A stretch of DNA of 64,000 nt from Candidatus Magasanikiibacteriota bacterium (GTDB taxonomy: Bacteria; Patescibacteriota; Patescibacteriia; Magasanikbacterales; UBA922): the NCBI GenBank assembly GCA_018650645.1, contig JABIFP010000025.1:7976-71975 (forward strand), written 5' to 3'. Shown here one piece after another: positions 13,154-61,888 of this stretch (the first letter of the stretch is position 1; every line of letters begins with the position of its first letter). The notes under the pieces are model-generated. The model was not told the DNA's origin. It did no database searches and worked only from the letters and a program-made list of their open reading frames with translations. The translations under genes were made by a program, and so were the position numbers.

Positions 13154-13549
13154 TCAGGCAACGCGCTTTACTTGCGCGCGGACAATTGTTGTACCTTCTG
13201 ATGCCTGCAGCAGATCCGTTCCGCTCGGCGCAATGAAGTACACTGCACCATTGTCGAATTGAATCTTCACAGCAGCCACCCCCCGATCAAGAAGCACCGG
13301 CCCGTGTGCAGGATTGTCTTCCTTTCTGTGAGCCTCCCAACTCACGGTGAGACAATGTACCCCCGCATCCGCCCTGAAATTAGGCATCGTGCCAAGCAGG
13401 TGATCGGGTCCCGACACGCAGACAGCGTTGAATGCCCTTGGACTGTCAGTCAACATCAGAATCCGCGCACTGACAGCAAGGTAAATTCCAGAGAACCCAC
13501 TTGCCGTAAACATGCGTCCGCTGCTGCGAATGAGCTCTGCATACGTCAT
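13154..13549 (-). CDS. hypothetical protein encoded in a GC-rich island
   Basis: A 131-aa ORF. Local GC is ~55% against ~40% in the flanks. A strong RBS aaaggagaacacaATG precedes the ATG at 13549. No recognisable domain. Confidence 0.5.
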   Translation of the reverse strand: MTYAELIRSSGRMFTASGFSGIYLAVSARILMLTDSPRAFNAVCVSGPDHLLGTMPNFRADAGVHCLTVSWEAHRKEDNPAHGPVLLDRGVAAVKIQFDNGAVYFIAPSGTDLLQASEGTTIVRAQVKRVA

Positions 13550-29825: not shown

Positions 29826-29973
29826 ACACGAGGTTCTTTTTGAAATATACGATGACTCAAGTATACCTTGGCTGGGCAAAAAAAAGAACTCGCGCATATT
29901 GACAGAGAGCAAAAGCTATGCTACGTTGCGTGAAGAACACTAACTGCCGCAACGCGGCTAAGGGAGGACGGCC

Positions 29974-30579
29974 ATGGGAAGGCCAAAGAAGAAGGATGCG
30001 TGGTGCAAGACCCGGTACGGGCGGATTGGCCGCCTGATGGCCGATCCGGAAACTACTCATGACCAGAGACTGTTCCTGTTGCAGCTCGAAGAGTACCTGT
30101 CGATGAACGTCGATCAGGCACTCGATATCCTCGAGTGGCGCGGTGAAGCGCACGTCATCACCTCGCGACTTCACGGCATGGTCGACGGCATCGACCCGAT
30201 CGCTGCCAGGCATGGGCTGAAGCTGCCGTTCACTGCGGAGGGCGAGGGCGTGAACACCACCTGGACGTGGATCGAGTGGCAGATGATCACGCCGATGGAC
30301 CTGTTCTGGCGGAGAACGGGGAAAGGGAACGCCCCTCTACTCCTTCAGCTACAGGAGGGAGGCAACCCCGAACAAATTGCGTGCGCGCTCTACAAATATC
30401 CCAAAGGTACCAAAATGGTGGGTTGGACACCGACTGATCTGCGCGAAGCTGCCGCAGATGCAATCGAGGCACTTTTGCAGACGGCCGAACGTGCGGGTCT
30501 CGGCAACGTCATTCAGACATCGACTGCCGACGGCGAACCCTACTACCGCTGGGTCGGCCCCCAGATCCCGCCCGCCTAG
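29974..30579 (+). CDS. hypothetical protein encoded in a GC-rich island
   Basis: A 201-aa ORF in a ~60% GC segment. A strong RBS taagggaggacggccATG precedes it. No recognisable domain. Confidence 0.5.
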   Translation: MGRPKKKDAWCKTRYGRIGRLMADPETTHDQRLFLLQLEEYLSMNVDQALDILEWRGEAHVITSRLHGMVDGIDPIAARHGLKLPFTAEGEGVNTTWTWIEWQMITPMDLFWRRTGKGNAPLLLQLQEGGNPEQIACALYKYPKGTKMVGWTPTDLREAAADAIEALLQTAERAGLGNVIQTSTADGEPYYRWVGPQIPPA

Positions 30580-30702
30580 CCCACACTCAAAGGGCGCGAC
30601 AAGAGACTACCGAGTAGCCCGGTTCCTGGCTACAACCGATTGCGGGGCGCACGTCGCCCCCAATCACTTTACTACGGCATATACTGCCTTTTTATTTTAC
30701 AA

Positions 30703-38169: not shown

Positions 38170-39210
38170 ATGAGCTCTATTTCACTTTCCACAGAATTCC
38201 GTCTGGCGCGCGAGTACCCTGGTAAAACTCTCCGAGACCTTGCCTTGCACGGCTTTCGTTTGGAGCAGCTTGAAAAATTTGAAGCTGGCGAAATGAATGA
38301 GGACGGCAATCCCTTGATCCAAGGTGCTCACCTACTACGCCTTGAAAAGCACCTCGGTAGTGCGCTGTACCACTTTGCTCCAGACAGTACCCGTTCCAGC
38401 CGATTGCTCCATGAAGTGTACCTCGCGCTGGCGCAGTTGAGTACGACGCCTCTTAAGTTGGCAGACATAGCAACCACACTGCAGCTGAAGACTGAAGACC
38501 TCTACGACGTCTGGAGAGGAAAACGAGCACTTGACCTTGAGGCGGGTAAGGCACTGCTCGGTTTGATCTCTCGTCTGCAAAACTGCGAATTTGCACTACC
38601 TGCGGCATACGGAAGGAGGATCTCCGCCGCAAGAAAGCGAGAAGGCCTTTCTCGAGAGGAACTTGCTCAAGCCGTACGAACACACCACTCCGTTGTGGAA
38701 ATGTGGGAGACTGATGAACTCTACCTAGCCGACGACCAGCATGCCGCGCTTGAATCGGTGTTAGGGCCGATGGAGAAAAGCCCAGCACACTGCAACGTGG
38801 ATCTCACGGCGCTCCTCAAGTCGCAGAGACATCTCAAGTCGAGGAGGCTCCAATTTTGGATCAGCGCAGCAAAGACAATCCGCATCGTGCGAGATGAAGG
38901 AGCCCCGCAGAGTGCTGACTGCCTTACGTGCACAACAGGTGACCCCATCAGAAAGTCTCCCCGCATAGGTAGGCCTCCAAAGATAGAACCTCCAAAAGAA
39001 CCCTGCAATTGGCCCCACATGCGTGATTGCACGCACCAACCAGCGGAAAGCCTCGCCATTCTCAGTAGCGACGAATCACAGCGACTGATGGTGGTATCCG
39101 AACCCAGCGGAGAATTGTGGGCACAGTACCTTTTTGAGAATCTGCACGCAACCGATTCCTACACACAATCCCTTCAATCCTTCCTCCGTGATTTCAAACC
39201 GCTCCGTTGA
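38170..39210 (+). CDS. XRE-type helix-turn-helix protein encoded in a GC-rich island (hypothetical regulator)
   Basis: Cro/C1-type HTH (RRISAARKREGLSREELAQAVRTHHSVVEMWE). ~60% GC. RBS aagaggtcccATG. Confidence 0.55.
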   Translation: MSSISLSTEFRLAREYPGKTLRDLALHGFRLEQLEKFEAGEMNEDGNPLIQGAHLLRLEKHLGSALYHFAPDSTRSSRLLHEVYLALAQLSTTPLKLADIATTLQLKTEDLYDVWRGKRALDLEAGKALLGLISRLQNCEFALPAAYGRRISAARKREGLSREELAQAVRTHHSVVEMWETDELYLADDQHAALESVLGPMEKSPAHCNVDLTALLKSQRHLKSRRLQFWISAAKTIRIVRDEGAPQSADCLTCTTGDPIRKSPRIGRPPKIEPPKEPCNWPHMRDCTHQPAESLAILSSDESQRLMVVSEPSGELWAQYLFENLHATDSYTQSLQSFLRDFKPLR

Positions 39211-39349
39211 GCCCAGCTCCGGAGCACCCCCCTTTTTTTAAAGGGATTTTTTTATAGAAAAAACTGCATACCAATTGATATGCAGTTTCCTATGGTGGAG
39301 CCATAACAGCTCCACCGGTCATGCCGCATTACTGCGGCGCTCCTTATGT

Positions 39350-40036
39350 TCAGTCAGGACTCAGGCGCACCAGCCGGAAGCCCACCGTCGGCGTGAGTGT
39401 GTTCGGGTCGAAGCATGAGAAGTCCTTGAACCCATGCCCCGGCATCGTCATGAAGTTCCGTTGCCCGTGCACGTAGTTGCAGCGGCCCTCGCCATCCGCA
39501 CTCCACTCAGAGACGTTCCCCCAGGGGCCGCGAATGCGACCCGCAGCAAGCTGCGGTACCGGCGTTGGCTTGTTCTTCAAGCAACGTGGGACCTCCCTCC
39601 ACGGACATCCCACCGCCCCATCAGGACCGTCCGTCAGGTGGATGGCAGCCGCCGCCCACTGCACGCGTGAAGCCATGGCGTAGGTACCCTTGTGTGTCCG
39701 CGAGTACCACTCTGCGTAGATCTTCGCATCGTACCAGCTGAGCCGCATCGGTGCGTCGAGCACCTGGTTCAGCTGAGTGAGATGACGCGGATACGGCCGG
39801 CTCGAACTGTTCACGAACTGCGCGTACTCACGCACCGTGACTGGATCACGCGCGATGGCGAAGGCCTTCTTGACCTCCACACGCTGATACCCGTCTGGCA
39901 ACCACCTATCGGTGGACGTTCCCATCTGCGCCTTATAGACGCCGGCCGGAACCGTTTCAAACCGCGGGAGTTCTTCAACTCCCGCCAGTGCGCTGCCGCC
40001 AAGCAGCACACTACATATCGTCATCCAAAAGCGCAT
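39350..40036 (-). CDS. secreted FGE-sulfatase (SUMF1/formylglycine-generating-enzyme-like) domain protein, GC-rich island
   Basis: A signal peptide, then WGNVSEWSADGEG, GHGFKDFSCFDP and GFRLVR signatures of PF03781. RBS gggaggaaagccATG. Confidence 0.7.
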   Translation of the reverse strand: MRFWMTICSVLLGGSALAGVEELPRFETVPAGVYKAQMGTSTDRWLPDGYQRVEVKKAFAIARDPVTVREYAQFVNSSSRPYPRHLTQLNQVLDAPMRLSWYDAKIYAEWYSRTHKGTYAMASRVQWAAAAIHLTDGPDGAVGCPWREVPRCLKNKPTPVPQLAAGRIRGPWGNVSEWSADGEGRCNYVHGQRNFMTMPGHGFKDFSCFDPNTLTPTVGFRLVRLSPD

Positions 40037-40440: not shown

Positions 40441-40476
40441 AAAAAAGCGGCCAACCCAAGGGTTGGCGCGCAAAGG
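40441..40476 (-). terminator. rho-independent terminator for the minus-strand GC-rich lipoprotein gene
   Basis: On the minus strand: gccaaccc tt gggttggc, then cgcttttttttac. Confidence 0.5.
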
Positions 40477-40493
40477 TCATGAGGCGTCAGCCC

Positions 40494-40928
40494 CTACTGC
40501 GAAGCGCAGTACAAGAGCCGAACGGCGTAGCGCTGAGGTGCGAAGCCGATGTCGACGACCTGACGGTTGTCATAGTCGCCCTCCGGCATCTCTTCCTCAG
40601 TCTTCATGACGTCGTGGTCGTCCATGGCGATGAACTCAGCGTCGTCGCGTTCCCCCAGCAGCAAGTCCACAGAGGACCCGTTCTGAGAGAGCAGGTGAAA
40701 CTGCAGCGGCTGACTGACATGAATCCGGAGATTCGTGCTACCCCCCGCCGGAACGCTGAGCAGATCACCCCCATCGAGGACGATGATCAGCGGCTCACTA
40801 CCGGCCTGCAGCCTGAGATCAGTGCTTTCGCACGCCCCCTCGCCGCCGTTGACTTCTTCTTCAGCGCCAGGATCACACCCGGCAACCCCGCCAGCCAAGA
40901 TAGCCAGCACCAACACATATCGTTTCAT
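40494..40928 (-). CDS. putative lipoprotein, GC-rich island (hypothetical)
   Basis: MKRYVLVLAILAGGVAGC has a lipobox. RBS ttggaggggaccATG. ~62% GC. Confidence 0.5.
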   Translation of the reverse strand: MKRYVLVLAILAGGVAGCDPGAEEEVNGGEGACESTDLRLQAGSEPLIIVLDGGDLLSVPAGGSTNLRIHVSQPLQFHLLSQNGSSVDLLLGERDDAEFIAMDDHDVMKTEEEMPEGDYDNRQVVDIGFAPQRYAVRLLYCASQ

Positions 40929-41307
40929 GGTCCCCTCCAAGGATCATTTTTGTTATGCAGCATTTGGCCGCATCTGAACAGTGTAGGGTCAAATGAGCAA
41001 TTTGTCAATGATGATATAGGCATTTTTCAGGAGGCCACCCTATTGACAAAAGCCCATTTTTATGGTATAGTTCTGCGTCGAATTGGTGACCTGATTTCAG
41101 CCTAGTTGAGATGAGTTCATCAGTGGTATTTGGCTAATTTTAGCGAAATATCCAATTGACTCACCAGTAGAGACGGAGCTGAGAAGCCACTCTTGTTACC
41201 TCTGTGACAACAGCGGTTTCTCAGTTCCATACATCAACCACCTCTCCTTCACACCTACCTTTGGAGAGGTATTGCTTCCCGCCAATGGCGGGTGATCGGA
41301 GAGCCGC

Positions 41308-42123
41308 ATGGCTCGCCTTTTCGTTCTGTTCCTGCTCGCCGCCCTGTCCACCGCCTGCGGCGGGAGCTGGGAGAACAGCTACGCCACCAAGAACTACGCG
41401 TGGGGTGAGAGCGATGTCACCCCGAAGCTGAACCCCAAGCAGCTCCAGACCTGGAGCAGCCTGACGGGGAAGATCTCCCGGTCCTACTACCCGGACGGCG
41501 TGGCGTTCTCGAAGTACCAGAACGTCGACACCTGGGATGCCAACCCGAATAAGGAAGGATATCACCCGCCCAAGCGGATCTCTTCCAGTACGGACATGCA
41601 GACAACGGAGAAGGCGCTTCTGACCAAAAAGATCCTCAGGATCTGTATGCCGAGCGCCCCGAAGAAGTGCAACAGGTCCACGACCATTCGCCTCTTCGTT
41701 CCCTTCGAGCAGCCGGACTGGAAGGTACACCCGGAGGGCCTCGTCGCCCATCATCTGATGGGCGACGTGCTCACGCAGCAGGATACCTACACGCTGCTGC
41801 TCCACATCGCCACTCAAATCCGGCAGATTCGCCAACGTAGGTTCCAGCAGTCCTGCAACGAGCAGGGCACGCCTGAGAACCTGCGACGAGTGTGCACGTC
41901 AAACATGAAAGAACATGGCTTCCTCCGCGACTTGAAGCCGCAGATCAACCGGTTGAAGAAGTCCCTATCCATCGGAAGGACGATCTCTGGCCCCTACCTG
42001 CCAATCCAGGAACTCCGAAAGGCGGACAGCGCTCTTGGCGACTACCTGGCCTACCAAAAGGGCGGCACCAAGCTGCACAACCACAAGGAGATGATGGCCC
42101 TCGCCGAGAGCCTCCTCCGTTAA
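41308..42123 (+). CDS. putative lipoprotein, GC-rich island (hypothetical)
   Basis: MARLFVLFLLAALSTACGG carries a lipobox and an upstream GGAGAG RBS. It is preferred over the antisense ORF 41221..41835. Confidence 0.5.
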   Translation: MARLFVLFLLAALSTACGGSWENSYATKNYAWGESDVTPKLNPKQLQTWSSLTGKISRSYYPDGVAFSKYQNVDTWDANPNKEGYHPPKRISSSTDMQTTEKALLTKKILRICMPSAPKKCNRSTTIRLFVPFEQPDWKVHPEGLVAHHLMGDVLTQQDTYTLLLHIATQIRQIRQRRFQQSCNEQGTPENLRRVCTSNMKEHGFLRDLKPQINRLKKSLSIGRTISGPYLPIQELRKADSALGDYLAYQKGGTKLHNHKEMMALAESLLR

Positions 42124-42142
42124 TCACTCTCTACTGGCATCA

Positions 42143-42168
42143 GGCCCGCTCCGGCGGGCCTTTGTCTT
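42143..42168 (+). terminator. GC-rich rho-independent terminator ending island 4
   Basis: ggcccgc tccg gcgggcc followed by tttgtctt. Confidence 0.6.
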
Positions 42169-42226
42169 ATACGCAATATCCGCCAAAGCCATAGCGTAGG
42201 AGGACCCAAAGATATCCCCAATCCTC

Positions 42227-42255
42227 TTGACAAAACCACCAAAATTCGGTATATT
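42227..42255 (+). promoter_or_regulatory. sigma70-type promoter (TTGACA-N17-TATATT) for secE-nusG
   Basis: An exact -35 TTGACA at 42227-42232, a 17-nt spacer, TATATT at 42250-42255, ~40 nt upstream of secE. Confidence 0.55.
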
Positions 42256-42295: not shown

Positions 42296-42475
42296 ATGAA
42301 TGCTTTGGCAAATTACTTCAAAGAAGCCATCAGCGAACTCAAGAAAGTCGTGTGGCCAACGAAGACGCAAACCAAGAACTATTCACTGATTGTGATCGCC
42401 ATGAGTATTGGTGTTGCCCTCTTTTTCGGAATTTTAGACTTCATCTTAAAACAAGGAGTGACTGCACTTATCTAA
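42296..42475 (+). CDS. secE: preprotein translocase subunit SecE (59 aa, below the ORF-track length cutoff)
   Basis: Hand translation: MNALANYFKEAISELKKVVWPTKTQTKNYSLIVIAMSIGVALFFGILDFILKQGVTALI. It has the canonical KV.WP motif and a single TM, and lies immediately upstream of nusG. Confidence 0.7.
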   Translation: MNALANYFKEAISELKKVVWPTKTQTKNYSLIVIAMSIGVALFFGILDFILKQGVTALI

Positions 42476-42509: not shown

Positions 42510-43055
42510 ATGGCTAAACAGACCCTCGACCTTGGAAAACGTTGGTACGTCCTCCACACATATAGTGGATATGAAGAAAACGTAAAGCGAAATCTGGAAC
42601 AACGTATTGATACCTTCGACATGCATGACAAGATTTGTGCTGTTATGGTGCCCAAAGAAAAGAAAATTAAAATCAAAGCAGGAAAGCGTGTCACTGTTGA
42701 AGAAAAAGTTTTTCCAGGATATGTACTTGTAGAAATGGTAGTAACAGATGATTCTTGGTACGTAGTACGTAATACACCAAACGTAACAGGATTTGTAGGA
42801 GCAGGAACAACACCAGTACCAATCGATCCAAAAGAAATGCTTTCACTCCAAAAACGTGTAAGCGATGATGAACCACTGCACAAAATCGACCTTGATGTTA
42901 ACGATTCGATTCAAATCATTGATGGACCATTTAAAGGATTTGAAGGAAAAGTTAGCGACGTGGATGATGCACGTGGAAAGATCAAGGTACTTGTGAGCAT
43001 GTTCGGAAGAGAAACTCCGGTAGAACTCGATGCACTCCAAGTAAAAAAAGTATAA
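42510..43055 (+). CDS. nusG: transcription termination/antitermination factor NusG
   Basis: NGN domain WYVLHTYSGYEENV and a KOW domain with FKGFEGKV. Confidence 0.95.
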   Translation: MAKQTLDLGKRWYVLHTYSGYEENVKRNLEQRIDTFDMHDKICAVMVPKEKKIKIKAGKRVTVEEKVFPGYVLVEMVVTDDSWYVVRNTPNVTGFVGAGTTPVPIDPKEMLSLQKRVSDDEPLHKIDLDVNDSIQIIDGPFKGFEGKVSDVDDARGKIKVLVSMFGRETPVELDALQVKKV

Positions 43056-43166
43056 CCCACTCCCCTGTGTGGGGAGCCTAGTACATGCATGTGTGCTGCG
43101 CTCACCACATACGGTGACAACATGCCTATCACTATAGGGCTTCTCATGTTACAAATTTGAATCTAT

Positions 43167-43592
43167 ATGGCAAAAGCAATTAAGGCTCAGATCAAATTGC
43201 AGATCAGAGGTGGCGCTGCTAACCCAGCACCTCCAGTTGGTCCAGCTCTTGGTCAACATGGGCTCAACATTCAAGACTTTTGTACGCAGTTCAACAATGC
43301 AACTGCAGACAAACGTGGAGAAGTAGTACCAGTTGTTATCGACGTGTACGACGACAGAACATTTACCTTCATCATGAAGGTTGCGCCAGCAAGCGCACTC
43401 ATCAAGTCTGCTCTTAACCTAAAGAGTGGATCTGGAAATCCTTTGAAAGAAAAAGTTGCAAAGCTTTCTAAAAAACAATTGCAAGAAATCGCAGAAAAGA
43501 AGATGCCAGACCTCAATGCAAATGACATTGAAGCAGCGATGAAAATTATTGCTGGAACAGCACGACAAATGGGAGTTACTATTGAAGAATAA
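43167..43592 (+). CDS. rplK: 50S ribosomal protein L11
   Basis: The N-terminal [11 protein letters not shown] motif is present, over 141 aa. Confidence 0.95.
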
Positions 43593-43608
43593 ACACTCCG
43601 CACATACA

Positions 43609-43637
43609 AAACTCGCCTCAATAGGCGAGTTTTGTTA
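43609..43637 (+). terminator. rho-independent terminator after rplK
   Basis: aaactcgcct caat aggcgagttttgtt. Confidence 0.75.
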
Positions 43638-43668
43638 TACTTGTGATATATTTTTCTTCGCATAGCAT

Positions 43669-44610
43669 ATGCCATCAGTAGTTTCTCGTATTCACTCGCC
43701 AACAGTCGCTATTATTGGCGCTGGTTTTGTTGGCTCTACCATTGCATATGCGCTCGCTATAAAAAATATCGCTTCAGAATTATTACTGATCGATATAAAT
43801 AAAGACAAACAAGAAGGAGAAGTCATGGACATTTCAGATGCCATGTGTTTTTTAGAAACAGGATGTGTCAGAAGCGCTACATATAAAGAAGCGCGCAAAG
43901 CAGATATCATTATTGTTACCGCTGGGGTCAATCAAAAACCTGGTGATACTCGATTAGATTTATTAGAAAAAAATGCCGGCATCATGCAATCGATTTTTTC
44001 TTCGATTGGAAAGCTGAGTAAAGATACAATTGTTATTGTCGTCTCAAATCCAGTAGATGTTTTAACGCAGCTTATTACCAAACTTACCAAGCTTCCAGCC
44101 GGACAAGTATTTGGTACAGGAACAACGCTTGATAGCGCACGACTCACATCGATTGTAGGACAGGAACTTGGAGTAAGTCCACAAAGTGTTCGTGGATTTG
44201 TATTAGGCGAACACGGCAACTCACAATTTGTTGCATGGAGCACGGTAACTATTGGCGGCGTACCTGCAAAAGATATTAAGGCGCTTAACGCTAAAGTAAA
44301 AAAGCGCATTGAAAAACGCGTGAAGCAAGAAGCCTATACTATTATTGAAAAAAAGGGAGCAACGTATTACGGCATCGGTCTTACTGTGGCAGACATTGTA
44401 GAAGCTGTCCTCTTTGATCAAAAAAAGATTATGCCAATTTCAGCGCCGCTAAAAAAATGGAATGGGGTGTCTGGAACATCGCTTGGATCCCCGCACGTGG
44501 TAGGAAGAAATGGGGCGGAAAGACAATGGCCAATGACACTTCCACCGCAAGAAAAAAAACAATTTGTGGCTTCAGCAAAATTGCTTCAATCAATGTATAA
44601 CTCGCTATGA
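43669..44610 (+). CDS. ldh: L-lactate dehydrogenase (LDH/MDH family)
   Basis: VAIIGAGFVGS NAD motif, a GEHGNS motif and a catalytic His region. Confidence 0.85.
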   Translation: MPSVVSRIHSPTVAIIGAGFVGSTIAYALAIKNIASELLLIDINKDKQEGEVMDISDAMCFLETGCVRSATYKEARKADIIIVTAGVNQKPGDTRLDLLEKNAGIMQSIFSSIGKLSKDTIVIVVSNPVDVLTQLITKLTKLPAGQVFGTGTTLDSARLTSIVGQELGVSPQSVRGFVLGEHGNSQFVAWSTVTIGGVPAKDIKALNAKVKKRIEKRVKQEAYTIIEKKGATYYGIGLTVADIVEAVLFDQKKIMPISAPLKKWNGVSGTSLGSPHVVGRNGAERQWPMTLPPQEKKQFVASAKLLQSMYNSL

Positions 44611-45470
44611 AATACCTGAAATACACCGCACTGTTTGCTAGTCTTTTGCTGGTGTTTGGATTTGGATGCTCATCAAAGACGCCCGCAGAAACACGCGTTG
44701 CGCAAAATGATGACATTGTTTCAAGCACGCCAATGCAAGAAGCATATTTGTTTTGTACAACACAAGGATACTCGGTTCACATTGAACGTTCTGCGGAATC
44801 TTTAAGTGGACATGTGTATTGTCAGTTTGACGAGGCGCGCAGTTGCCCAGCATTTGAATTCCTTTCTGGCGATTGTGATGTAGAAAATGCTGACGGTCAA
44901 TTACCAGCAGAAACAGCCGCAATTATTGATGAATCAGATCTTTCTATTTCTACTGGGCCAAGATTTTGCCCATCCGTTGCGGAACCGGTGTGTGGAGAAG
45001 ACAGCCGCACGTATGTAAATGATTGTGTAGCAGAACTGCAAGGCGTAGAAATTATTCATGAAGGTGCTTGTGAAAATCCGGTGATTTTAGACGACCCGGC
45101 ATCAGAAACTGACGCATCCGGAAGAAAAAGACGAACAGTTCGGAGTACAAATACATCCAGAAAGACTTCTAGCGGCAGTTCTTCATCAGGATCAACCAGC
45201 CAGTCTACTGACCGAGAGGTCACTCCTGAATCCCCAGATTGGATTGATAGCTTAATTGCTTTACTCCGAGCTGATGCGTCACTCAGCACGGCATCTATTG
45301 ATAGCTGCAAAGCTGGAAGCCGTACGTATTACCTGCAACGAGGAAATTTCTCTGCGCTGTACGATACACGAGGGCAAGTAATTTGTTACCCTGGTAGAGA
45401 CGTGCATGACACATGTCCGGAAAGTTACCGAGATGGCGAATTCAGGTGTCAGGAGATTTGGAAAAAATAG
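44607..45470 (+). CDS. lipoprotein with a DUF333 domain and a Kazal-type protease-inhibitor-like domain
   Basis: Lipobox VFGFGCSS. DUF333-like FCTTQGYS...YCQFDEARSC..EF.SGDC. Kazal signature EPVCGEDSRTYVNDC...EGAC. Translationally coupled to ldh (ATGA overlap). Confidence 0.6.
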   Translation: MKYLKYTALFASLLLVFGFGCSSKTPAETRVAQNDDIVSSTPMQEAYLFCTTQGYSVHIERSAESLSGHVYCQFDEARSCPAFEFLSGDCDVENADGQLPAETAAIIDESDLSISTGPRFCPSVAEPVCGEDSRTYVNDCVAELQGVEIIHEGACENPVILDDPASETDASGRKRRTVRSTNTSRKTSSGSSSSGSTSQSTDREVTPESPDWIDSLIALLRADASLSTASIDSCKAGSRTYYLQRGNFSALYDTRGQVICYPGRDVHDTCPESYRDGEFRCQEIWKK

Positions 45471-45482
45471 CATACAAAAGAA

Positions 45483-45512
45483 AAGAATCGCCAATGGCGA
45501 TTCTTTTTATAT
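45483..45512. terminator. bidirectional rho-independent terminator
   Basis: agaatcgcc aat ggcgattct then ttttat, with an A-rich stretch before it. Confidence 0.7.
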
Positions 45513-45601
45513 ACAAAAAAGCCGCACCAAGGTAACGAGCTTTCTCGTCCGCTTGTGTGCGGCGGTGCACGCGGTTGCATGCGTCCCTCCTTGTTGTGTG
45601 G

Positions 45602-45928
45602 TCAGCCCGGGGGGCCGATGATGATGATCTTGGGAGCAAAGCCGAACCTCTGTCCCGGGTGTCCCAGGATGACTCCACGACTGCCTTCCAAGGTGTCTTG
45701 GACAAACCAGCTCTTGGGGTCACGAAGCTCAAGCTCGCTGACACCCCAGTTCAAGATCAGACCGGTAGCCCCCTCTTCGACCCAATCAAGCCGCTGCTGG
45801 TGCCACGTACTCACATCCTCCGGCGGATAGTAGCGATTCGTGACAAGATCAATGCCAACATGTATCCCGCCATGACGGAAACATACCGTGCCCCCTACGA
45901 AGCGCTTCAACATCTCGAGTGTAACCAT
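45602..45928 (-). CDS. hypothetical protein, GC-rich island (strand assignment uncertain)
   Basis: A 108-aa ORF in tandem (12-nt gap) with the 45940-46299 ORF. The overlapping plus-strand ORF 45557..45958 cannot be excluded. Confidence 0.3.
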   Translation of the reverse strand: MVTLEMLKRFVGGTVCFRHGGIHVGIDLVTNRYYPPEDVSTWHQQRLDWVEEGATGLILNWGVSELELRDPKSWFVQDTLEGSRGVILGHPGQRFGFAPKIIIIGPPG

Positions 45929-45939
45929 CTACCCCTCCT

Positions 45940-46299
45940 CTACTGGTATTCGCACTGATCTCGCAGCGCTTGCCACTGAGTAAACGGCGGTTTCCAGATC
46001 TGGATACGCCGTACGACCAACCGTTTGAGATGGTCTGCGTCGTCCAGCTCGATTCTTCCGCCCTGCTCATGCAGCTTGCAAGAATCCATCAGGATATACG
46101 AGCCGTAGCGATCCGTGGCGACCCGCACAACTCGATACACCCGCACCTCAGCACTAAAAGCCTCTGTCCGAACCGAGACAAAATCCCCGATCTGGAGCAG
46201 GCTCAGCGCAGCGCTCAGTGCGGGCACCGAATCCGGCCGCTGCTGCGCAGAGGCGGTAACCGTCAGCAGAAGAGACACCAAAATCCACAGAACCTTCAT
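45940..46299 (-). CDS. secreted hypothetical protein, GC-rich island
   Basis: A signal peptide MKVLWILVSLLLTVTASAQQ. A strong RBS ctgggaggtcaatATG. Confidence 0.45.
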   Translation of the reverse strand: MKVLWILVSLLLTVTASAQQRPDSVPALSAALSLLQIGDFVSVRTEAFSAEVRVYRVVRVATDRYGSYILMDSCKLHEQGGRIELDDADHLKRLVVRRIQIWKPPFTQWQALRDQCEYQ

Positions 46300-46382
46300 A
46301 TTGACCTCCCAGTCAGTTTTTGCGATATCTGCTCTAGTTGTAGCATACATTCCCAAATATTTCAATACCAGCGCCCCTCATA

Positions 46383-46412
46383 TTGACAAAATCGCCATAA
46401 TATAATAGTATA
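46383..46412 (+). promoter_or_regulatory. putative promoter upstream of rplA (TTGACA ... TAGTAT / TATAAT)
   Basis: catATTGACAaaatcgccataaTATAATagtat. The spacing to TATAAT is short (12 nt), and 18 nt to TAGTAT. Confidence 0.3.
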
Positions 46413-46474
46413 CGCCCACTTAATACATGTGGGACTTCCGTCTAGGAAGGCTATCACCACGTAACCCTATTGCT

Positions 46475-47155
46475 ATGAGCAAGAGAATGAACGAAGCAAA
46501 CGCACAAGTTGAAGCAATTCGCGTATACTCACTTACTGAAGCTGTAGAACTTGTAAAGAAAACAAGCACAGTAAAGTTTGATGCTTCTGTAGAAGTACAT
46601 GTACGACTTGGAATCAACACCAAAAAAGGTGACCAACAAGTACGATCAACTGTGGTTCTTCCACACGGAACAGGAAAAACGAAACGCGTTGCAGCATTTG
46701 TTGCACCGAATGATGAAGAAGCTGCAAAAGCAGCAGGAGCGGACTTGGTACTTGGAGAAGAAGAAATCAAGACATTAAAAACAACAGGAAAAATCGATTT
46801 TGATGTAGCCGTTGCTACACCAGAAATGATGCCAAAGATTGCAGTAGCAGCAAGAGTGCTTGGACCCCGTGGTCTTATGCCAAATCCAAAAACTGATACT
46901 GTAGGAAAAGATTTTGCAAAAATGATTGGTGACCTGAAAAAAGGAAAAGCTGCATTTAAAAATGATGACACAGCAAATGTGCATCAGCTCGTTGGAAAAG
47001 TAAGTTTTTCTGAAGAGCAACTTGTAGAAAACATCACCGCATTCATGGATGCACTGAAAAAAGTAAAACCAGCAACAATGAAAGGAGTTTACTTCAAGTC
47101 ACTCACACTTACGAGTGCTATGGGACCTGGAGTAAAATTCTCTGTAGACGCGTAA
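46475..47155 (+). CDS. rplA: 50S ribosomal protein L1
   Basis: N-terminal MSKRMNEANAQVEAIRVYSLTEAVELVK..., a central DFDVAVATPEMMPKI segment and C-terminal GVYFKSLTLTSAMGPGVKF match L1 over 226 aa. ATG at 46475 in the track ORF frame. Confidence 0.95.
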   Translation: MSKRMNEANAQVEAIRVYSLTEAVELVKKTSTVKFDASVEVHVRLGINTKKGDQQVRSTVVLPHGTGKTKRVAAFVAPNDEEAAKAAGADLVLGEEEIKTLKTTGKIDFDVAVATPEMMPKIAVAARVLGPRGLMPNPKTDTVGKDFAKMIGDLKKGKAAFKNDDTANVHQLVGKVSFSEEQLVENITAFMDALKKVKPATMKGVYFKSLTLTSAMGPGVKFSVDA

Positions 47156-47170
47156 TACCGTTTACAAACA

Positions 47171-47200
47171 AAAACAGCGCATACATGCGCTGTTTTTGTT
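47171..47200. terminator. rho-independent terminator after rplA (copy 1 of a duplicated hairpin)
   Basis: aaaaacagcgcat acat gcgctgtttttgttttt. Confidence 0.8.
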
Positions 47201-47263
47201 TTTCTCCAACGCAGCTAAGAAGCGTTGTTGGGGTTTGTGGTGCCTCTACCCGATCTGACTCCT

Positions 47264-47554
47264 TCAGGTCTCTGCGTCTTGAGGCGAGATAGAATACACG
47301 GAAACACCAATTCCCTCTTTCTGAATCTTCTGCGCGTCCACCAACTCCTCAAGCGCAAACCTGACAGCTGCCAAATTACATGCTGGCAGCGCAGCAAGAA
47401 TTGCTGCGGAAGCAAGAGGCCTCTCACTGCGCTCGAGAACCCTGAGTACGCGTTGACGCACCCTATGCCCAGCCCAGCTTGTCATGGCACCAAACAGCAA
47501 GAACAGCAGCATGACCCCAGCCATCACATACATGATCATGAATATCCCACCCAT
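47264..47554 (-). CDS. small hypothetical membrane / winged-helix-like protein, GC-rich island
   Basis: An N-terminal TM (MGGIFMIMYVMAGVMLLFLLFGAM) followed by a helical segment. The start is ambiguous (ATG at 47554 or TTG at 47596) and there is no clear RBS. Confidence 0.3.
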   Translation of the reverse strand: MGGIFMIMYVMAGVMLLFLLFGAMTSWAGHRVRQRVLRVLERSERPLASAAILAALPACNLAAVRFALEELVDAQKIQKEGIGVSVYSISPQDAET

Positions 47555-47632
47555 TTTGTACTGGCTGAAATTACCAAATGCAGAAGGTATTGTCAATGCT
47601 ACCCACTATCCCGAGTGAATCTAACGAAAACA

Positions 47633-47672: not shown

Positions 47673-48950
47673 TTACTCAGCAGCTTCTTCTTTTGCCTCT
47701 TCTTCCTTAGGAGCCTCCTCTACCTTTGGCGCTTCTTCCGCCTTAGGTGATTCTTCTTCCTTAGGTTCTTCTTCAACTTTTGGCTCCTCTTCTTTTGGTG
47801 CCTCTTCTACCTTAGGTTCTTCTGCTTTTGGCGCTTCTTCAGTAGACTTTTCAGCCTTCTTCTTAAGTCCACCAAGGCGAAGTCCCAATCGGTGCTCTGC
47901 AGCATCAATGTTGAGAATTTCAAATGTTGTTTTTTGTCCAAGAGTGAACATATCTTCAAGTTCTTTCACGTCGCGAATTGCTCGGTTTGAAACTTCAGAA
48001 ATGTGCGCAAGCCCATGAATATCTTCATCAAGCTTTACCATCAAACCAAATGGTTCGATTTTGTGGATTTCTCCTTCCACTTCTTGTCCAATTTTGTATG
48101 TTTCTTTCACACTCTTCCATGGATCGTCTACAAGACGCTTCATTGAAAGATAGATTTTTGATTTGTTGAGATCAATAATTTGCGCTTTTACGTTGTCACC
48201 AACCTTGAGCACATCTTTTGGATGATCAATTCGTTGCCAAACAATCTCTGAGATATGGATAAGTCCTTCAAGACCTTGTCCAAATTTCATGAACGCACCA
48301 AAACTGGTAAGCGCACTGATTTGTCCTTCAACAATATCTCCAATAGAGTATGAGTCAAGTACCGCTTTTTGATCGTCTTCCCAAACAGCCTTTTCTGACA
48401 CAATCAATTTTTCATCTTGTTCGTTGAGGTCAAGAACTTTTACATCCATTCCCATTCCAACAAAACTGCGGAGGTGTTCTAAAATACGATTTTTGTCACC
48501 ACCTTGTACACGAGGGTAATGTTCTGGAGCAAGTTGACTTACTGGCATAAATCCTACCAATGCGTCTACCTTGATCATCAAACCACCCTTGTTGGCAGCA
48601 ATAACTTTTCCTTTCACAACAAGTTCATCATCACAATACTTTTGCATTGTTTTCCAAACGCGTTGTTGTCCAGCAATACGGAATGATAATTCCATTTCAC
48701 CAGTTTCGTTTTCTTGTTCAACTACTGTTGCTTCAACAGCGTCTCCAACGTTAATGTCAGAATATTCACTTGATTCTGAAAACAGTTCATATCCACGGAC
48801 AAGTCCAGTGATAAGTCCATTTACATCAAGTCGAACGGCTCCGTTATCAATAGAGATAACTGTTCCGCTTACCAACTCTCCAACCTTTGGAAGTTGTGCA
48901 AAATAATCTTCTAACAGCGTTGCAAAGTCGCTTTGTGTTGTATTTGCCAT
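47673..48950 (-). CDS. rpsA: 30S ribosomal protein S1 (four S1 domains) with a C-terminal (E/A/P/K) repeat tail
   Basis: Four S1 repeats (e.g. GQEVEGEIHKIEPFGLMVKL). The tail is EEAPKAEEPKVEEAPKEEEPKVEEEPKEEESPKAEEAPKVEEAPKEEEAKEEAAE. Confidence 0.9.
   Translation of the reverse strand: MANTTQSDFATLLEDYFAQLPKVGELVSGTVISIDNGAVRLDVNGLITGLVRGYELFSESSEYSDINVGDAVEATVVEQENETGEMELSFRIAGQQRVWKTMQKYCDDELVVKGKVIAANKGGLMIKVDALVGFMPVSQLAPEHYPRVQGGDKNRILEHLRSFVGMGMDVKVLDLNEQDEKLIVSEKAVWEDDQKAVLDSYSIGDIVEGQISALTSFGAFMKFGQGLEGLIHISEIVWQRIDHPKDVLKVGDNVKAQIIDLNKSKIYLSMKRLVDDPWKSVKETYKIGQEVEGEIHKIEPFGLMVKLDEDIHGLAHISEVSNRAIRDVKELEDMFTLGQKTTFEILNIDAAEHRLGLRLGGLKKKAEKSTEEAPKAEEPKVEEAPKEEEPKVEEEPKEEESPKAEEAPKVEEAPKEEEAKEEAAE
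47690..47860 (-). repeat. in-frame nucleotide tandem repeats (~15-27 nt units) encoding the EAPK/EEPKV tail of S1
   Basis: Recurring cttcttc..ttagg..cttcttc..cctttgg units on the plus strand. Confidence 0.5.
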
Positions 48951-49215
48951 AAGCAATTACGATTTAACCCAGTTTTTTAGCTGAGCCTGGCCAAAAAGCC
49001 AGTTATTTAACGTGGGCGCATTATATCAGCAGCTTCTGAAAAAAGCAAGCCCCCCGCTGGGGATTGCCGGACCCTCCATTTTTAGCTTGAAATAGCACTA
49101 AATGAGGGTGATTTGCCCTCTATAAATCCCTTGCGCACCCCATCGTAATACGCTATAATAGCTTGGCAACGAATGCATTTCAGATGCACCGTATTAATCT
49201 TGTTATAACGCGAAT

Positions 49216-56996: not shown

Positions 56997-57839
56997 ATGA
57001 AAATACGATTTGATGCAGGAGTCAGCCGAATTGTTGGCTGGAAGGTTGATCCGAGAGGGGAGAAAATTCCCCAATCTCAGCAAGACAGCTTCATTGTCAG
57101 CGAGAAGCTCGGTCTGTTCGTTGTCTTTGACGGCGTGGGTGGGCATGCAGGCGGAGAAGTTGCCAGCGCCATGGCGGCGACGCTTTTGGAAGAGAGCTTC
57201 ACGCTGCTGATACAAGTACTTGAGGTGGAAGCAGCACAGCGCGAACCCTACCGAATCCAATCGGAGATAGAAGCTGCGCTCAGGCGGGCCAGTAGAGCAA
57301 TCTACCACGCCGGCCGCAGAGATCCTGCGCTTGATTACATGGCCACCACAGTCAGCGGCGTCTTCTTCTACGAAGGAACCGCCTACTACTTCAACGTCGG
57401 CGACAGCCGCTGCTACAGGGAGCAAAACGGCGAGTTTGAGCAGATGACGCGGGATCACTCCTATGTGGCTGACCAGCTCTATGAGGGACTCATCACCGCA
57501 GAAGAGGCGCGAAACCACCCAGATCGAGGTGGGATGCACGCGGCACTTGGATTCCGCGACATTTCCGATTATGTCGATGTCCGCTACACACCCTCGCAGC
57601 CCGGCGACGGCTGGATCATCTGCACGGACGGCCTGGTGGACTACGCCGACCCGGACCGATGGGAAGTTGTAGCGTCTTCCCAACTACGCCGTGGCATCTG
57701 CACCGACGAGATCGCTACGACGCTGACCAACCTGACCACCGCAGAAGCCGGTATTCCACTGGGGTCTTTCCCCGGCGAGTACTACGACTACAACAGGTGC
57801 GACAACACCACGGTGATTGCACTGCGCATTTGCCGATGA
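56997..57839 (+). CDS. PP2C-family (PPM) serine/threonine protein phosphatase, GC-rich island
   Basis: VVFDGVGGHAGGEVAS, NVGDSR, TDGL and DNTTV motifs. ~62% GC. RBS aaaaggggtacattcATG. Confidence 0.8.
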   Translation: MKIRFDAGVSRIVGWKVDPRGEKIPQSQQDSFIVSEKLGLFVVFDGVGGHAGGEVASAMAATLLEESFTLLIQVLEVEAAQREPYRIQSEIEAALRRASRAIYHAGRRDPALDYMATTVSGVFFYEGTAYYFNVGDSRCYREQNGEFEQMTRDHSYVADQLYEGLITAEEARNHPDRGGMHAALGFRDISDYVDVRYTPSQPGDGWIICTDGLVDYADPDRWEVVASSQLRRGICTDEIATTLTNLTTAEAGIPLGSFPGEYYDYNRCDNTTVIALRICR

Positions 57840-57865
57840 ACAACCGAGGAGACGACAAAAAAACG

Positions 57866-60794: not shown

Positions 60795-61000
60795 AGGAAA
60801 AATAAAAAAAACACCTGTAAAATGAGGACTCCATTGGAGCGGTACCACCTCAATTCCACACGTGTGGCGCTTGATTACAGCTGTACTGGGCTTACCCATG
60901 GGATTCTACTTGGCTGTTTGCCGTTCTTTCCCTTGCGCATCGATTCGATTCCCGGTTGATTGCCGGTATGGCGCTTGTTTTTATTGTGGATTTACTATAG
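60795..61000 (-). promoter_or_regulatory. putative T-box riboswitch leader of valS
   Basis: The minus strand reads AATTGAGGTGGTACCGCT, ~45 nt upstream of the start (T-box consensus AATTAGGGTGGNACCGCG). Downstream is ...ACAGGTGTTTTTTTT. Upstream is a TTGACT-N16-TATAGT promoter. Confidence 0.5.
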
Positions 61001-61054
61001 CAGATGCAAGTTATTAGTCAAGAACAAACACCTCTATATATAGTATGTATTAAA

Positions 61055-61098
61055 AAAGGCGCCGCCGGGTGATCCCCGGTCGACGCCATGTTCTTGGT
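61055..61098 (-). terminator. GC-rich rho-independent terminator for the minus-strand island gene
   Basis: Minus strand: ggcgtcgaccgggg atcac cccggcggcgcc then ttttttaat. Confidence 0.5.
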
Positions 61099-61111
61099 TC
61101 CCCCCGAATGG

Positions 61112-61888
61112 TCAGCTCAGATGACCTGCTTGCTGAAGCAGCGTCACTAGAGCCTTGGGATCCACGGCAAGCTTGGCAAGCTCGCTCTCTGCGCGAAGCC
61201 GCTGCACTTGTAGCTCACCAGCCTCAATAGCGGTGGCGAGCGCCTCTTTCCTGGCATGCGAGAGGGCCTTCTCCGCCTGACGCTCCCCTTCCGTCCGCTT
61301 CATGGACTGCAGTTCATCATAGGCGCGACCACACTCAGCCTGAGCAGCCTCATACGCGGTGACAGCGCTCTGAAGAGTACGCTGGAGCTGACGCACCTCA
61401 CCAGCGTGAATCTCCACACCCGCCTGATGAGCCAATAGAAGTTGTTCAGCCTCAGCCATCGGTGTCATGCCGCCGACGAGTAGTCCGCTGACCATGCCGA
61501 TCTCACTCTCGACCTGCGCTCGCTCTGTTTGGTGCCCGCGTAGGTTCTTCTTCGCCACCGCCAGCTCGTACCCGTCCCCCACAACGGCGGCCAGCCTGTC
61601 GCGAAGCGCTGATGGCTTCATCCCTTTCAGCGATAGCTTGAGCTCCGTTCGCGTGGAGTTGTTGCCCGGCTGCACCGTGACCGTCACGCCGCTCGAGTCG
61701 ATATCCCCGATCTTGGCGTTCTGGAGACCCTTGGTGTGTCCCGTACCTCTCGGCATCCCGCTCGTAAGCTTCACCGATAGCTCCCCTGCGAGCTGAGCAA
61801 GCTCGGCCCACTCGCGAAGAATCCTCTCCAAGAGCCTCTTGAGCTTTGAGTCGGGATCATGCCCCTTAAACTCAATTTGCAAACTCAT
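61112..61888 (-). CDS. hypothetical coiled-coil protein, GC-rich island
   Basis: A 258-aa ORF, ~62% GC, whose C-terminal half is Ala/Glu/Gln-rich heptad-like sequence. No recognisable domain. Confidence 0.5.
   Translation of the reverse strand: MSLQIEFKGHDPDSKLKRLLERILREWAELAQLAGELSVKLTSGMPRGTGHTKGLQNAKIGDIDSSGVTVTVQPGNNSTRTELKLSLKGMKPSALRDRLAAVVGDGYELAVAKKNLRGHQTERAQVESEIGMVSGLLVGGMTPMAEAEQLLLAHQAGVEIHAGEVRQLQRTLQSAVTAYEAAQAECGRAYDELQSMKRTEGERQAEKALSHARKEALATAIEAGELQVQRLRAESELAKLAVDPKALVTLLQQAGHLS

Follow-up and report, generated by a model that had tools for sequence, protein, structure and literature searches.

The closest described systems are the autoregulatory mRNAs of ribosomal protein L1, known from the leader of the E. 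coli L11 operon, from the L1 operon of Methanococcus vannielii and from RNAs of the type preceding rplA (Fu et al. 2013, PMC3616713). According to that paper, the validated E. coli L1 operator is located just before rplK; in Cyanobacteria, Actinobacteria and Chloroflexi, an L1-interacting RNA is found immediately in front of rplA, as a rule in the rplK-rplA spacer; and Rfam typically has no entry for RNAs of this kind. In the archaeal arrangement outlined there, rplK is unlinked, and the L1 site stands directly before rplA in an rplA-rplJ-rplL operon (PMC3616713). We studied the region between rplK (ribosomal protein L11) and rplA (ribosomal protein L1) in a 64-kb stretch of DNA of ~41% GC from a Candidatus Magasanikiibacteriota bacterium (contig JABIFP010000025.1), hereafter the window. 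Here, the two genes are separated by 2.9 kb (43593-46474) occupied by other genes.

Based on the open reading frame (ORF) list and on Pfam and NCBIfam annotations, the gene order is secE-nusG-rplK, followed by the L-lactate dehydrogenase (L-LDH) gene ldh, a gene for a putative lipoprotein with a Kazal domain, a GC-rich island and rplA. The initial annotation of the locus had reported an interrupted rplK-rplA pair, a terminator of rplK's own and a bidirectional terminator in the gap, and all three were recovered (Table 1). As a whole, the locus is likely explained by an ancestral operon fission, with a conserved slot for cargo genes, an inherited L1-binding-type motif, a new rplA promoter and a GC-rich island added later. 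The evidence comprises gene identities, synteny, conservation and covariation of the motif, promoter conservation and base composition. The case is a tidy operon fission, neither recent nor exotic, and it offers a clean natural example of what lets a near-universal ribosomal-protein operon break.

Synteny of the rplK-rplA junction and its cargo slot

Synteny was analysed in two sets of loci. The first comprised 80 loci containing L1 homologues, with a single genome for each GTDB species, and the window proteins were mapped onto them by tblastn; the second comprised 80 metagenome loci, partly from the same organisms as the first. The best L1 relatives were metagenome-assembled genomes (MAGs) of Candidatus Magasanikbacteria, with L1 identity of at most 73%. 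The outgroup comprised 45 Patescibacteria loci with L1 identity of 50-59% (from Falkowbacteria, Moranbacteria and others), and rplK was directly upstream of rplA in every one of them. Among the Magasanikbacteria-type loci (L1 identity 57-73%), 21 had rplK 1.09-5.31 kb upstream of rplA, five further loci contained no rplK in 6-8 kb of upstream sequence, and an adjacent pair was found in none of the loci fetched. The metagenome loci gave the same division: 14 split and none adjacent at L1 identity of at least 61%, and 42 adjacent at 60% or below. Since every genome of the lineage examined carries it, the split is, on this synteny, an ancestral Magasanikbacteria trait, that is, an old and lineage-wide operon fission. 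The recent event implied by the initial annotation was therefore not borne out.

In some relatives, rplA has moved further. In one subclade (L019, L021, L034, L038), it stands downstream of genes for a tyrosine recombinase and for a protein of the 23S rRNA intervening sequence (23S-IVS) type, and 6-8 kb of sequence contained no rplK; in L031 it adjoins miaA. Because rplA occurs in such unrelated contexts, it behaves as a movable, free-standing gene. In three of these loci (L019, L034, L038), tandem gccttgtaagc-like repeats replace the sigma-70 promoter, and the L1-binding-type motif is retained throughout the subclade.

The arrangement resembles the archaeal one in that rplK and rplA form separate units, with an operator that would belong to rplA alone (PMC3616713). 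Unlike in archaea, rplA stands alone: tblastn with distant queries (E. coli L10 and L7/L12) detected neither rplJ nor rplL in the window or in the 80 loci (L007-L086). One outgroup locus has convergent genes after rplA, consistent with the absence of rplJ/rplL downstream. The two arrangements also differ in that rplK lies only 2.9 kb upstream here and that the state is secondary within a bacterial lineage.

The ORFs of the gap were clustered and scanned with Pfam and NCBIfam. L-LDH follows rplK in six loci (the window, L007, L012, L016, L025 and L033), a D-isomer-specific 2-hydroxyacid dehydrogenase (2-Hacid_dh) is found at that slot in 13 loci, and the two occur together in none. The ldh product of the window passes the NCBIfam L-LDH equivalog TIGR01771 (353.8 vs the cut-off of 303.55), and its translation contains the motifs NQKPG and GEHG. 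The Gln of the NQKPG loop together with GEHG is what we take to be a signature of the LDH type rather than of the malate dehydrogenase type. In 11 loci (the window and 10 others), a secreted-protein family with Kazal/DUF333(/DUF6970) domains follows the dehydrogenase, whichever its type, and across loci the stop codon of the dehydrogenase and the start codon of the secreted protein often overlap or abut. A DUF5671 membrane protein is encoded directly after rplK in some loci and is the sole cargo in the divergent L040 and L041.

In the window, the secreted protein is Cys-rich, and the ATG of its gene and the preceding ldh stop codon share the sequence ATGA (44607-44610). The protein scored above the cut-offs of Kazal_1 (25.8 bits, cut-off 21) and Kazal_2 (25.5 bits, cut-off 22.8). 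For DUF333 (cut-off 25), both the window protein (18 bits) and its homologue in L018 (24.1 bits), which additionally carries DUF6970, remained below. The N-terminus of the window protein (MKYLKYTALFASLLLVFGFGC) was inspected by eye for a lipobox, whose -3 position is non-canonical.

In a rough neighbour-joining (NJ) tree of NusG, L11 and L1, built without support values, the two dehydrogenase types are interleaved, which suggests that they were replaced in place. As in in-situ non-orthologous gene displacement, two unrelated NAD-dependent 2-oxoacid reductase folds share one slot after rplK, exclude each other and have a downstream partner gene in common. The difference is that the 2-Hacid_dh members are known here by family only, below any equivalog cut-off, and their equivalence to LDH (D-lactate dehydrogenase activity) is our assumption. 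We regard a cargo slot with alternating dehydrogenase types as modestly novel.

The predicted L1 operator and the transcription signals around rplA

The element between the island and rplA is a short RNA motif, GUGG-GA-CUUCC-GUCUA-GGAAG-GCUAUCA-CCAC (46429-46460), which ends 14 nt before the rplA AUG. Its general form is GUGGGA(C/G), a hairpin, 6-7 nt ending in A, and CCAC. The initial annotation had pointed to 46430-46470 as the place of a possible L1-binding structure, and a candidate was indeed found there by covariance and covariation. The motif stands directly before rplA in nearly all of the 160 loci (about 150), split and unsplit alike; in the unsplit genomes, it is within the rplK-rplA spacer. 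In a MAFFT alignment of 16 sequences, pairing was 100%, and all five hairpin pairs showed compensatory changes. The covariation score was reached by none of 500 shuffles, and slid controls fell to 45-57% pairing. A model-derived alignment of 32 sequences gave the same result (5/5 hairpin pairs compensatory). The outer stem covaries as well, with GCGG/CCGC in L075 and L083 and GAGG/CCUC in L040, L041, L122 and L123.

A covariance model (R1) built from 16 Magasanikbacteria sequences, with a search space of 1.14 Mb, gave one match per Magasanikbacteria locus, always before rplA. The only match in the window was the motif described (38.9 bits), so that no second site was found by this model before rplK. 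In the window, no Rfam 15 family reached its gathering score; at E <= 10 over 42900-47400, Rfam gave only terminator look-alikes and no leader family. In the E. coli secE-nusG-rplK-rplA locus, the top match of the model was GGGAGCCUCUCAGAGGCGUUAUUACC, 19 nt before rplK, at a weak 12.1 bits (E = 0.13 in 2.7 kb). It falls where the validated operator is located (PMC3616713). Furthermore, the L1-stalk segment of E. coli 23S rRNA, GGUGGGAG...GAAAUACCACC (checked against annotated 23S genes), has the identical sequences GUGGGAG and ACCAC as its flanks; the comparison uses the E. coli sequence, as the organism's own 23S rRNA is outside the window.

We suggest that the motif is an L1 operator of the known type that precedes rplA, newly seen in Patescibacteria. 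It shares with the described L1 autoregulatory mRNAs a short helix with an asymmetric internal loop and a 5'-strand GGGA(G), an apparent resemblance to the 23S rRNA L1-stalk site, a position in the leader directly before rplA, a stem that covaries while the loop bases are fixed, and a best E. coli match at the known site (PMC3616713, sections on these leaders). It differs in three respects. Patescibacteria are not among the groups named in those sections; the motif in Magasanikbacteria heads a predicted monocistronic rplA transcript with its own promoter instead of lying inside an rplK-rplA transcript; and the AUG downstream lacks a Shine-Dalgarno site. If the assignment is right, the range of the L1 operator extends to Patescibacteria, and the covariance model is ready for use in annotation.

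The position of the motif also bears on the start of rplA. The public gene call starts at the ATG at 46427 (242 aa) and places the motif inside the coding sequence. The start at MSKR agrees with the relatives, whose tblastn alignments begin at residue 1. The relatives and the conserved RNA motif indicate 46475 as the true start (226 aa), which would correct a public call that takes in the operator. In Falkowbacteria-type L1 (L042-L046, L049 and other outgroups), the first 20-40 codons form a lysine-rich N-terminal extension. For these genes, the extension implies that the true AUG is located ~11 nt after the motif, well upstream of the start of L1 homology.

What changed at the fission can be read from the spacers. 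In the unsplit outgroups, the median distance is 12 nt from the rplK stop codon to the start of the motif and 11 nt from its end to the AUG, a spacing that leaves no room for a terminator. A promoter scan of the outgroups gave a score of at least 10/12 in 5 of 46 loci, with no conserved promoter. In the split lineage, a perfect TTGACA, a 17-nt spacer and TAnnnT were found in 27 of 33 loci, as a rule with 15-20 nt between this site and the motif downstream of it, and 28 of the 33 loci scored at least 10/12, vs 2% of shuffles. When the intergenic regions were folded with RNAfold, ~20 of 22 lineage loci had a terminator-like hairpin directly after rplK, and in the window the rplK-ldh intergenic stretch folds at -22.6 kcal/mol. 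An extended -10-like element, TGTTATACT, often stands after this hairpin and before the dehydrogenase; a GTTATACT/GTTATAAT element read by eye recurs after the rplK terminator in ~9 related loci. In the window, such an element (TGnTATACT), read by eye and given no scan statistic, may be the promoter of the ldh-lipoprotein unit. The secE-nusG-rplK unit probably starts at the promoter-like site upstream of secE. The second terminator-like structure of the gap, after the lipoprotein gene, is a perfect 13-bp palindrome (12 pairs in the scan) with A and T runs on both flanks. The terminator-like sequence after rplA would make rplA the last and only gene of its unit.

As the motif is already present before rplA in unsplit Patescibacteria, the translational control of rplA appears to be inherited; new elements would be limited to its promoter and to the terminator that follows rplK. 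Because the operator already lay between rplK and rplA, rplA would have needed only a promoter for autonomy. The initial annotation had given rplA its own promoter, which is supported at the level of sequence by the conserved TTGACA-17-TAnnnT. It had also inferred newly acquired transcription and regulation; the former agrees with the new promoter and terminator, while the L1 regulation seems to be older than the split.

The following course of events can be proposed. The ancestral Patescibacteria cluster would have been secE-nusG-rplK-[L1 motif]-rplA, with the motif in the short spacer and rplA last. In the Magasanikbacteria ancestor, an insertion would have placed additional DNA downstream of the rplK stop codon and upstream of the motif, and the junction would then have become a conserved slot for L-LDH or 2-Hacid_dh, usually with the Kazal/DUF333 protein and sometimes with DUF5671. 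A terminator after rplK, a cargo promoter and a strong sigma-70-type promoter 15-20 nt before the motif would have stabilised the fission. Presumably, rplA now forms a free-standing unit, in which a promoter and a leader of ~55 nt precede the gene and a terminator follows it. The leader helix, a putative mimic of the L1-stalk site of 23S rRNA (H76-78 junction), would be bound by free L1; as the helix ends 14 nt before an AUG without a Shine-Dalgarno site, bound L1 would hinder 30S loading, and L1 synthesis would thereby be matched to the rRNA supply. L11 would now be outside L1 control, and probably was so in the ancestor, since the site is downstream of rplK. Finally, the GC island may have entered between the cargo terminator and the rplA promoter in this species. 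The junction would thus have served as a stable slot for a fermentation enzyme and later as a landing site for foreign genes.

Two alternatives concern the signals themselves, and we consider each unlikely. The first is that rplA is still co-transcribed with rplK, the hairpins being leaky attenuators and the promoter a chance match. The U-run of the rplK hairpin is partly inside the stem, the transcript ends are read from the DNA, and B. subtilis rplA transcripts include rplK (PMC3616713). Against this, such a transcript would in the species studied here have to cross two terminator-like hairpins and 0.7 kb of antisense genes; the perfect TTGACA, the 17-nt spacer and the fixed distance to the motif in 27 of 33 loci are far beyond chance; and several relatives have rplA in unrelated contexts without rplK. 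The second, of similarly low probability, is that the GUGGGA...ACCAC hairpin is not an L1 operator but serves to stabilise the 5' end of the transcript, as an RNase site or as a target for a protein other than L1. In its favour, L1 binding is a prediction, the motif is short and matches no Rfam family, and a long distance separates it from the start codon in one subclade. However, the invariant GGGA(G/C) and ACCAC match the 23S L1-stalk and the E. coli L11-leader site, the motif stays with rplA in ~150 loci wherever rplA moves, and a plain stabilising hairpin would not hold its loop bases invariant while the stem covaries. We therefore retain the predicted operator under a promoter of rplA's own.

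Several observations nevertheless weigh against the fission with inherited L1 control. L1 binding is deduced from mimicry, with E. coli standing in for the organism's own 23S rRNA and with the low-scoring E. coli match mentioned above. In one subclade (L013, L015, L024, L025; also L095, L097, L099, L104 and L116), 77-112 nt separate the motif from the AUG downstream, and simple occlusion is therefore no universal mechanism. The termination at the hairpins and the use of the promoters are predictions from motifs in the DNA. With DUF5671 as their sole cargo, L040 and L041 may stem from a split of their own. As for the cargo, the patchy pattern of LDH and 2-Hacid_dh depends on the rough NJ tree, and the 2-Hacid_dh slot proteins pass no NCBIfam equivalog cut-off. 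In the subclade with the distant motif, an AT-rich insert with tgtatcttg-type repeats (80-115 nt before rplA) was observed between the L1 motif and the start codon, an arrangement in which repression by direct occlusion would fail.

The GC-rich island and other GC-rich islets

The island comprises 746 bp of 58% GC against a background of 41%. The initial annotation had described ~830 bp of 60% GC DNA; the GC-rich stretch exists, is somewhat smaller and less GC-rich, and contains two genes rather than a spacer. Its ORFs are in tandem on the minus strand, each with a GGAGG-type Shine-Dalgarno site, and have a GC content at third codon positions (GC3) of 0.66-0.68, vs 0.25-0.38 in native genes. 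Public gene calls start the 119-aa ORF at 46350, giving 136 aa. The distance from the lipoprotein stop to rplA is ~150-440 nt in related loci and 1004 nt in the window, and no counterparts of the island ORFs were detected by tblastn in the related loci L007-L166. Among 5.8 billion proteins, the ORFs matched only themselves; an exhaustive phmmer search of the 119-aa ORF against 1.84 billion representatives likewise returned only itself. They had no Pfam, PHROG or PADLOC match and no viral relative in IMG/VR, and a single-sequence AlphaFold model of an island ORF was unusable (pLDDT 43). The window was found to lack tRNA genes, and the island ORFs to lack recombinase domains. A metagenome scan with the lipoprotein revealed no island-free strains, and one with L1 gave no relative above 73% identity.

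Foreign composition and two orphan genes, one with a signal peptide, suggest that the island is a recent insertion specific to this species. As a weak guess, it encodes a small secreted protein and a partner of uncertain role. The flanks carry a weak 19-nt inverted repeat (79%; 45494-45512 and 46380-46398). A 13-nt direct repeat, CCTTCATATTGAC / CCCTCATATTGAC (46293-46305 and 46375-46387), links the start of an island ORF with the rplA -35 box. These repeats could be insertion traces or chance matches.

Alternatively, the entire 2.9-kb interruption might be recent and specific to this species; the island would fit, and so would the species-specific GC-rich ORF downstream of rplA (47264-47596), which has no counterpart in relatives and is likewise of foreign composition. 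This is very improbable: ldh and the lipoprotein gene are native in composition (GC3 0.31-0.34), relatives that share only 64-73% L1 identity with the window have them at the same slot, and no member of the lineage has an adjacent rplK-rplA pair, so that the explanation holds only for 45541-46286. That the GC-rich stretches are assembly chimeras or contaminant DNA, as the sharp jump from 41% to 58% GC and island proteins without homologues might suggest, is hardly credible, since the junctions are identical in at least six samples from different pipelines, each islet is a single gene surrounded by native ones in a contig up to 614 kb long, and many related MAGs contain similar islets. Across the region, contigs assembled from six other samples (ENA, Logan, JGI; three pipelines) were 99.99-100% identical, and because these independent contigs are nearly identical, the arrangement is real and no assembly artefact. 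An ancestral fission with a later island thus remains our preferred explanation.

The island is one of about nine GC-rich islets in the window, which make up ~11% of its length (58% GC vs 41%), each about one gene in size, with GC3 of 0.55-0.83. Their products include an FGE-sulfatase-like protein, a PP2C phosphatase, a helix-turn-helix (HTH) protein and several proteins that are lipoproteins or secreted orphans. At a distance of 4-20 nt upstream of the start codon, a GGAG-type site was found in 7 of 10 islet genes vs 2 of 44 native genes (Fisher p = 2e-5). The native genes, those for ribosomal proteins included, are essentially without Shine-Dalgarno sites (e.g., 43147-43166, 43649-43668 and 46455-46474). 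No rRNA gene was found in the window by Rfam, and the 16S anti-Shine-Dalgarno is thus outside its scope.

Similar islets (59-70% GC, GC3 up to 0.96) were found in many related Magasanikbacteria loci, often just upstream of the rplA promoter or of secE, and in none of the 45 outgroup loci. Their proteins are mostly unrelated across species. Signal peptides or lipoboxes occur in many of them, and the set includes a peptidase of the M23 family, an SLT transglycosylase and a protein with a CAP domain. The ends of the islets share no common sequence, and no convincing flanking repeats were found. The FGE-sulfatase islet protein matched only itself, and no donor could be identified, three island or islet proteins having no homologue among billions of proteins.

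With genomic islets acquired by horizontal gene transfer, these islets share a sharp composition contrast, single-gene size, a place between transcription units and absence from relatives. In contrast to them, we found here no integrase, tRNA gene or convincing flanking repeats and no donor that can be named (three proteins without homologues), and Shine-Dalgarno sites are a feature of the islet genes but not of the native ones. Tentatively, and with considerable doubt, they may form a lineage-wide class of single-gene cassettes of 58-70% GC with Shine-Dalgarno sites, mostly for secreted or cell-wall-active proteins and collected at operon boundaries. Such a class would be a fast-turnover, horizontally acquired secretome with translation signals unlike those of the residents, possibly from an unsampled GC-rich host or its mobile elements. 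Foreign islets with Shine-Dalgarno sites are the most unusual feature of the window. In a genome otherwise without such sites, they could help to trace gene flow to, and perhaps the hosts of, uncultivated episymbionts, and if genome-wide, the islet pattern would carry more weight than the split itself.

Table 1. Features of the rplK-rplA locus, of GC-rich islets and of related loci. Positions refer to the window unless a locus is given.
Feature	Position	Strand	Basis or remark
Promoter-like TTGACA-17-TATATT, upstream of secE	42227..42255	+	11/12 matches
secE	42296-42475	+	Pfam SecE
nusG	42510-43055	+	Pfam NusG and KOW
rplK (ribosomal protein L11)	43167-43592	+	Pfam Ribosomal_L11_N, Ribosomal_L11
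Terminator-like hairpin 3' of rplK	43606-43635	+	13-bp stem; U-run within and past 3' arm
TGnTATACT, extended -10-like, just past rplK terminator	43633..43641	+	Read from sequence
L-lactate dehydrogenase (ldh)	43669-44610	+	Pfam Ldh_1_N/C; TIGR01771
Secreted/lipoprotein-like Cys-rich protein, Kazal domain	44607-45470	+	Pfam
Bidirectional terminator-like palindrome, AAAAGAATCGCCA-A-TGGCGATTCTTTT	45481..45507	both	100% complementary
GC-rich island	45541..46286	-	Composition
Island ORF, 108 aa	45602..45928	-	GC3 0.66; GGAGG 6 nt before ATG
Island ORF, 119 aa	45940..46299	-	GGGAGG Shine-Dalgarno; N-terminal signal peptide MKVLWILVSLLLTVTASA
rplA promoter-like TTGACA-17-TAGTAT	46383..46411	+	17 nt upstream of L1 motif
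L1-binding-type mRNA motif (predicted)	46429..46460	+	Covariance model, 38.9 bits
rplA (ribosomal protein L1)	46475-47155	+	Pfam Ribosomal_L1, 186.7 bits
Terminator 3' of rplA, AAAAACAGCGCA-TACA-TGCGCTGTTTTT	~47170-47204		Sequence; weak Leu_leader alignments cover it
Convergent membrane/winged-helix ORF	47264-47596	-	Transmembrane segment; weak HTH_20; GC-rich (islet 47279-47502)
S1-domain protein	47673-48956	-	ORF/Pfam
GC-rich islets of the window	13179-13492, 29938-30655, 38258-40016, 40451-40921, 41227-42204, 45541-46286, 47279-47502, 57077-57847, 60892-61838		
GC-rich islets of relatives, among others	L007 6657-7738; L009 1-3170, 7357-7779; L010 353-1643; L016 278-2405; L022 1-2585, 6572-7754; L028 1-1621; L029 7657-8869		
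Slot dehydrogenases, examples	window 43669-44610; L009 4884-5897; L036 6867-7886		
rplA in relocated context	L019 4412-5794; L021 6278-7701; L034 6260-7698; L038 6245-7736		

It should be added that many GTDB representative records used here (L011-L014, L016, L018, L023, L028, L029 and others) are titled 'uncultured Gammaproteobacteria' or 'Bdellovibrionales' despite their Patescibacteria-type secE-nusG-rplK-rplA loci. These titles are probably placeholder or wrong labels on the deposited MAGs.

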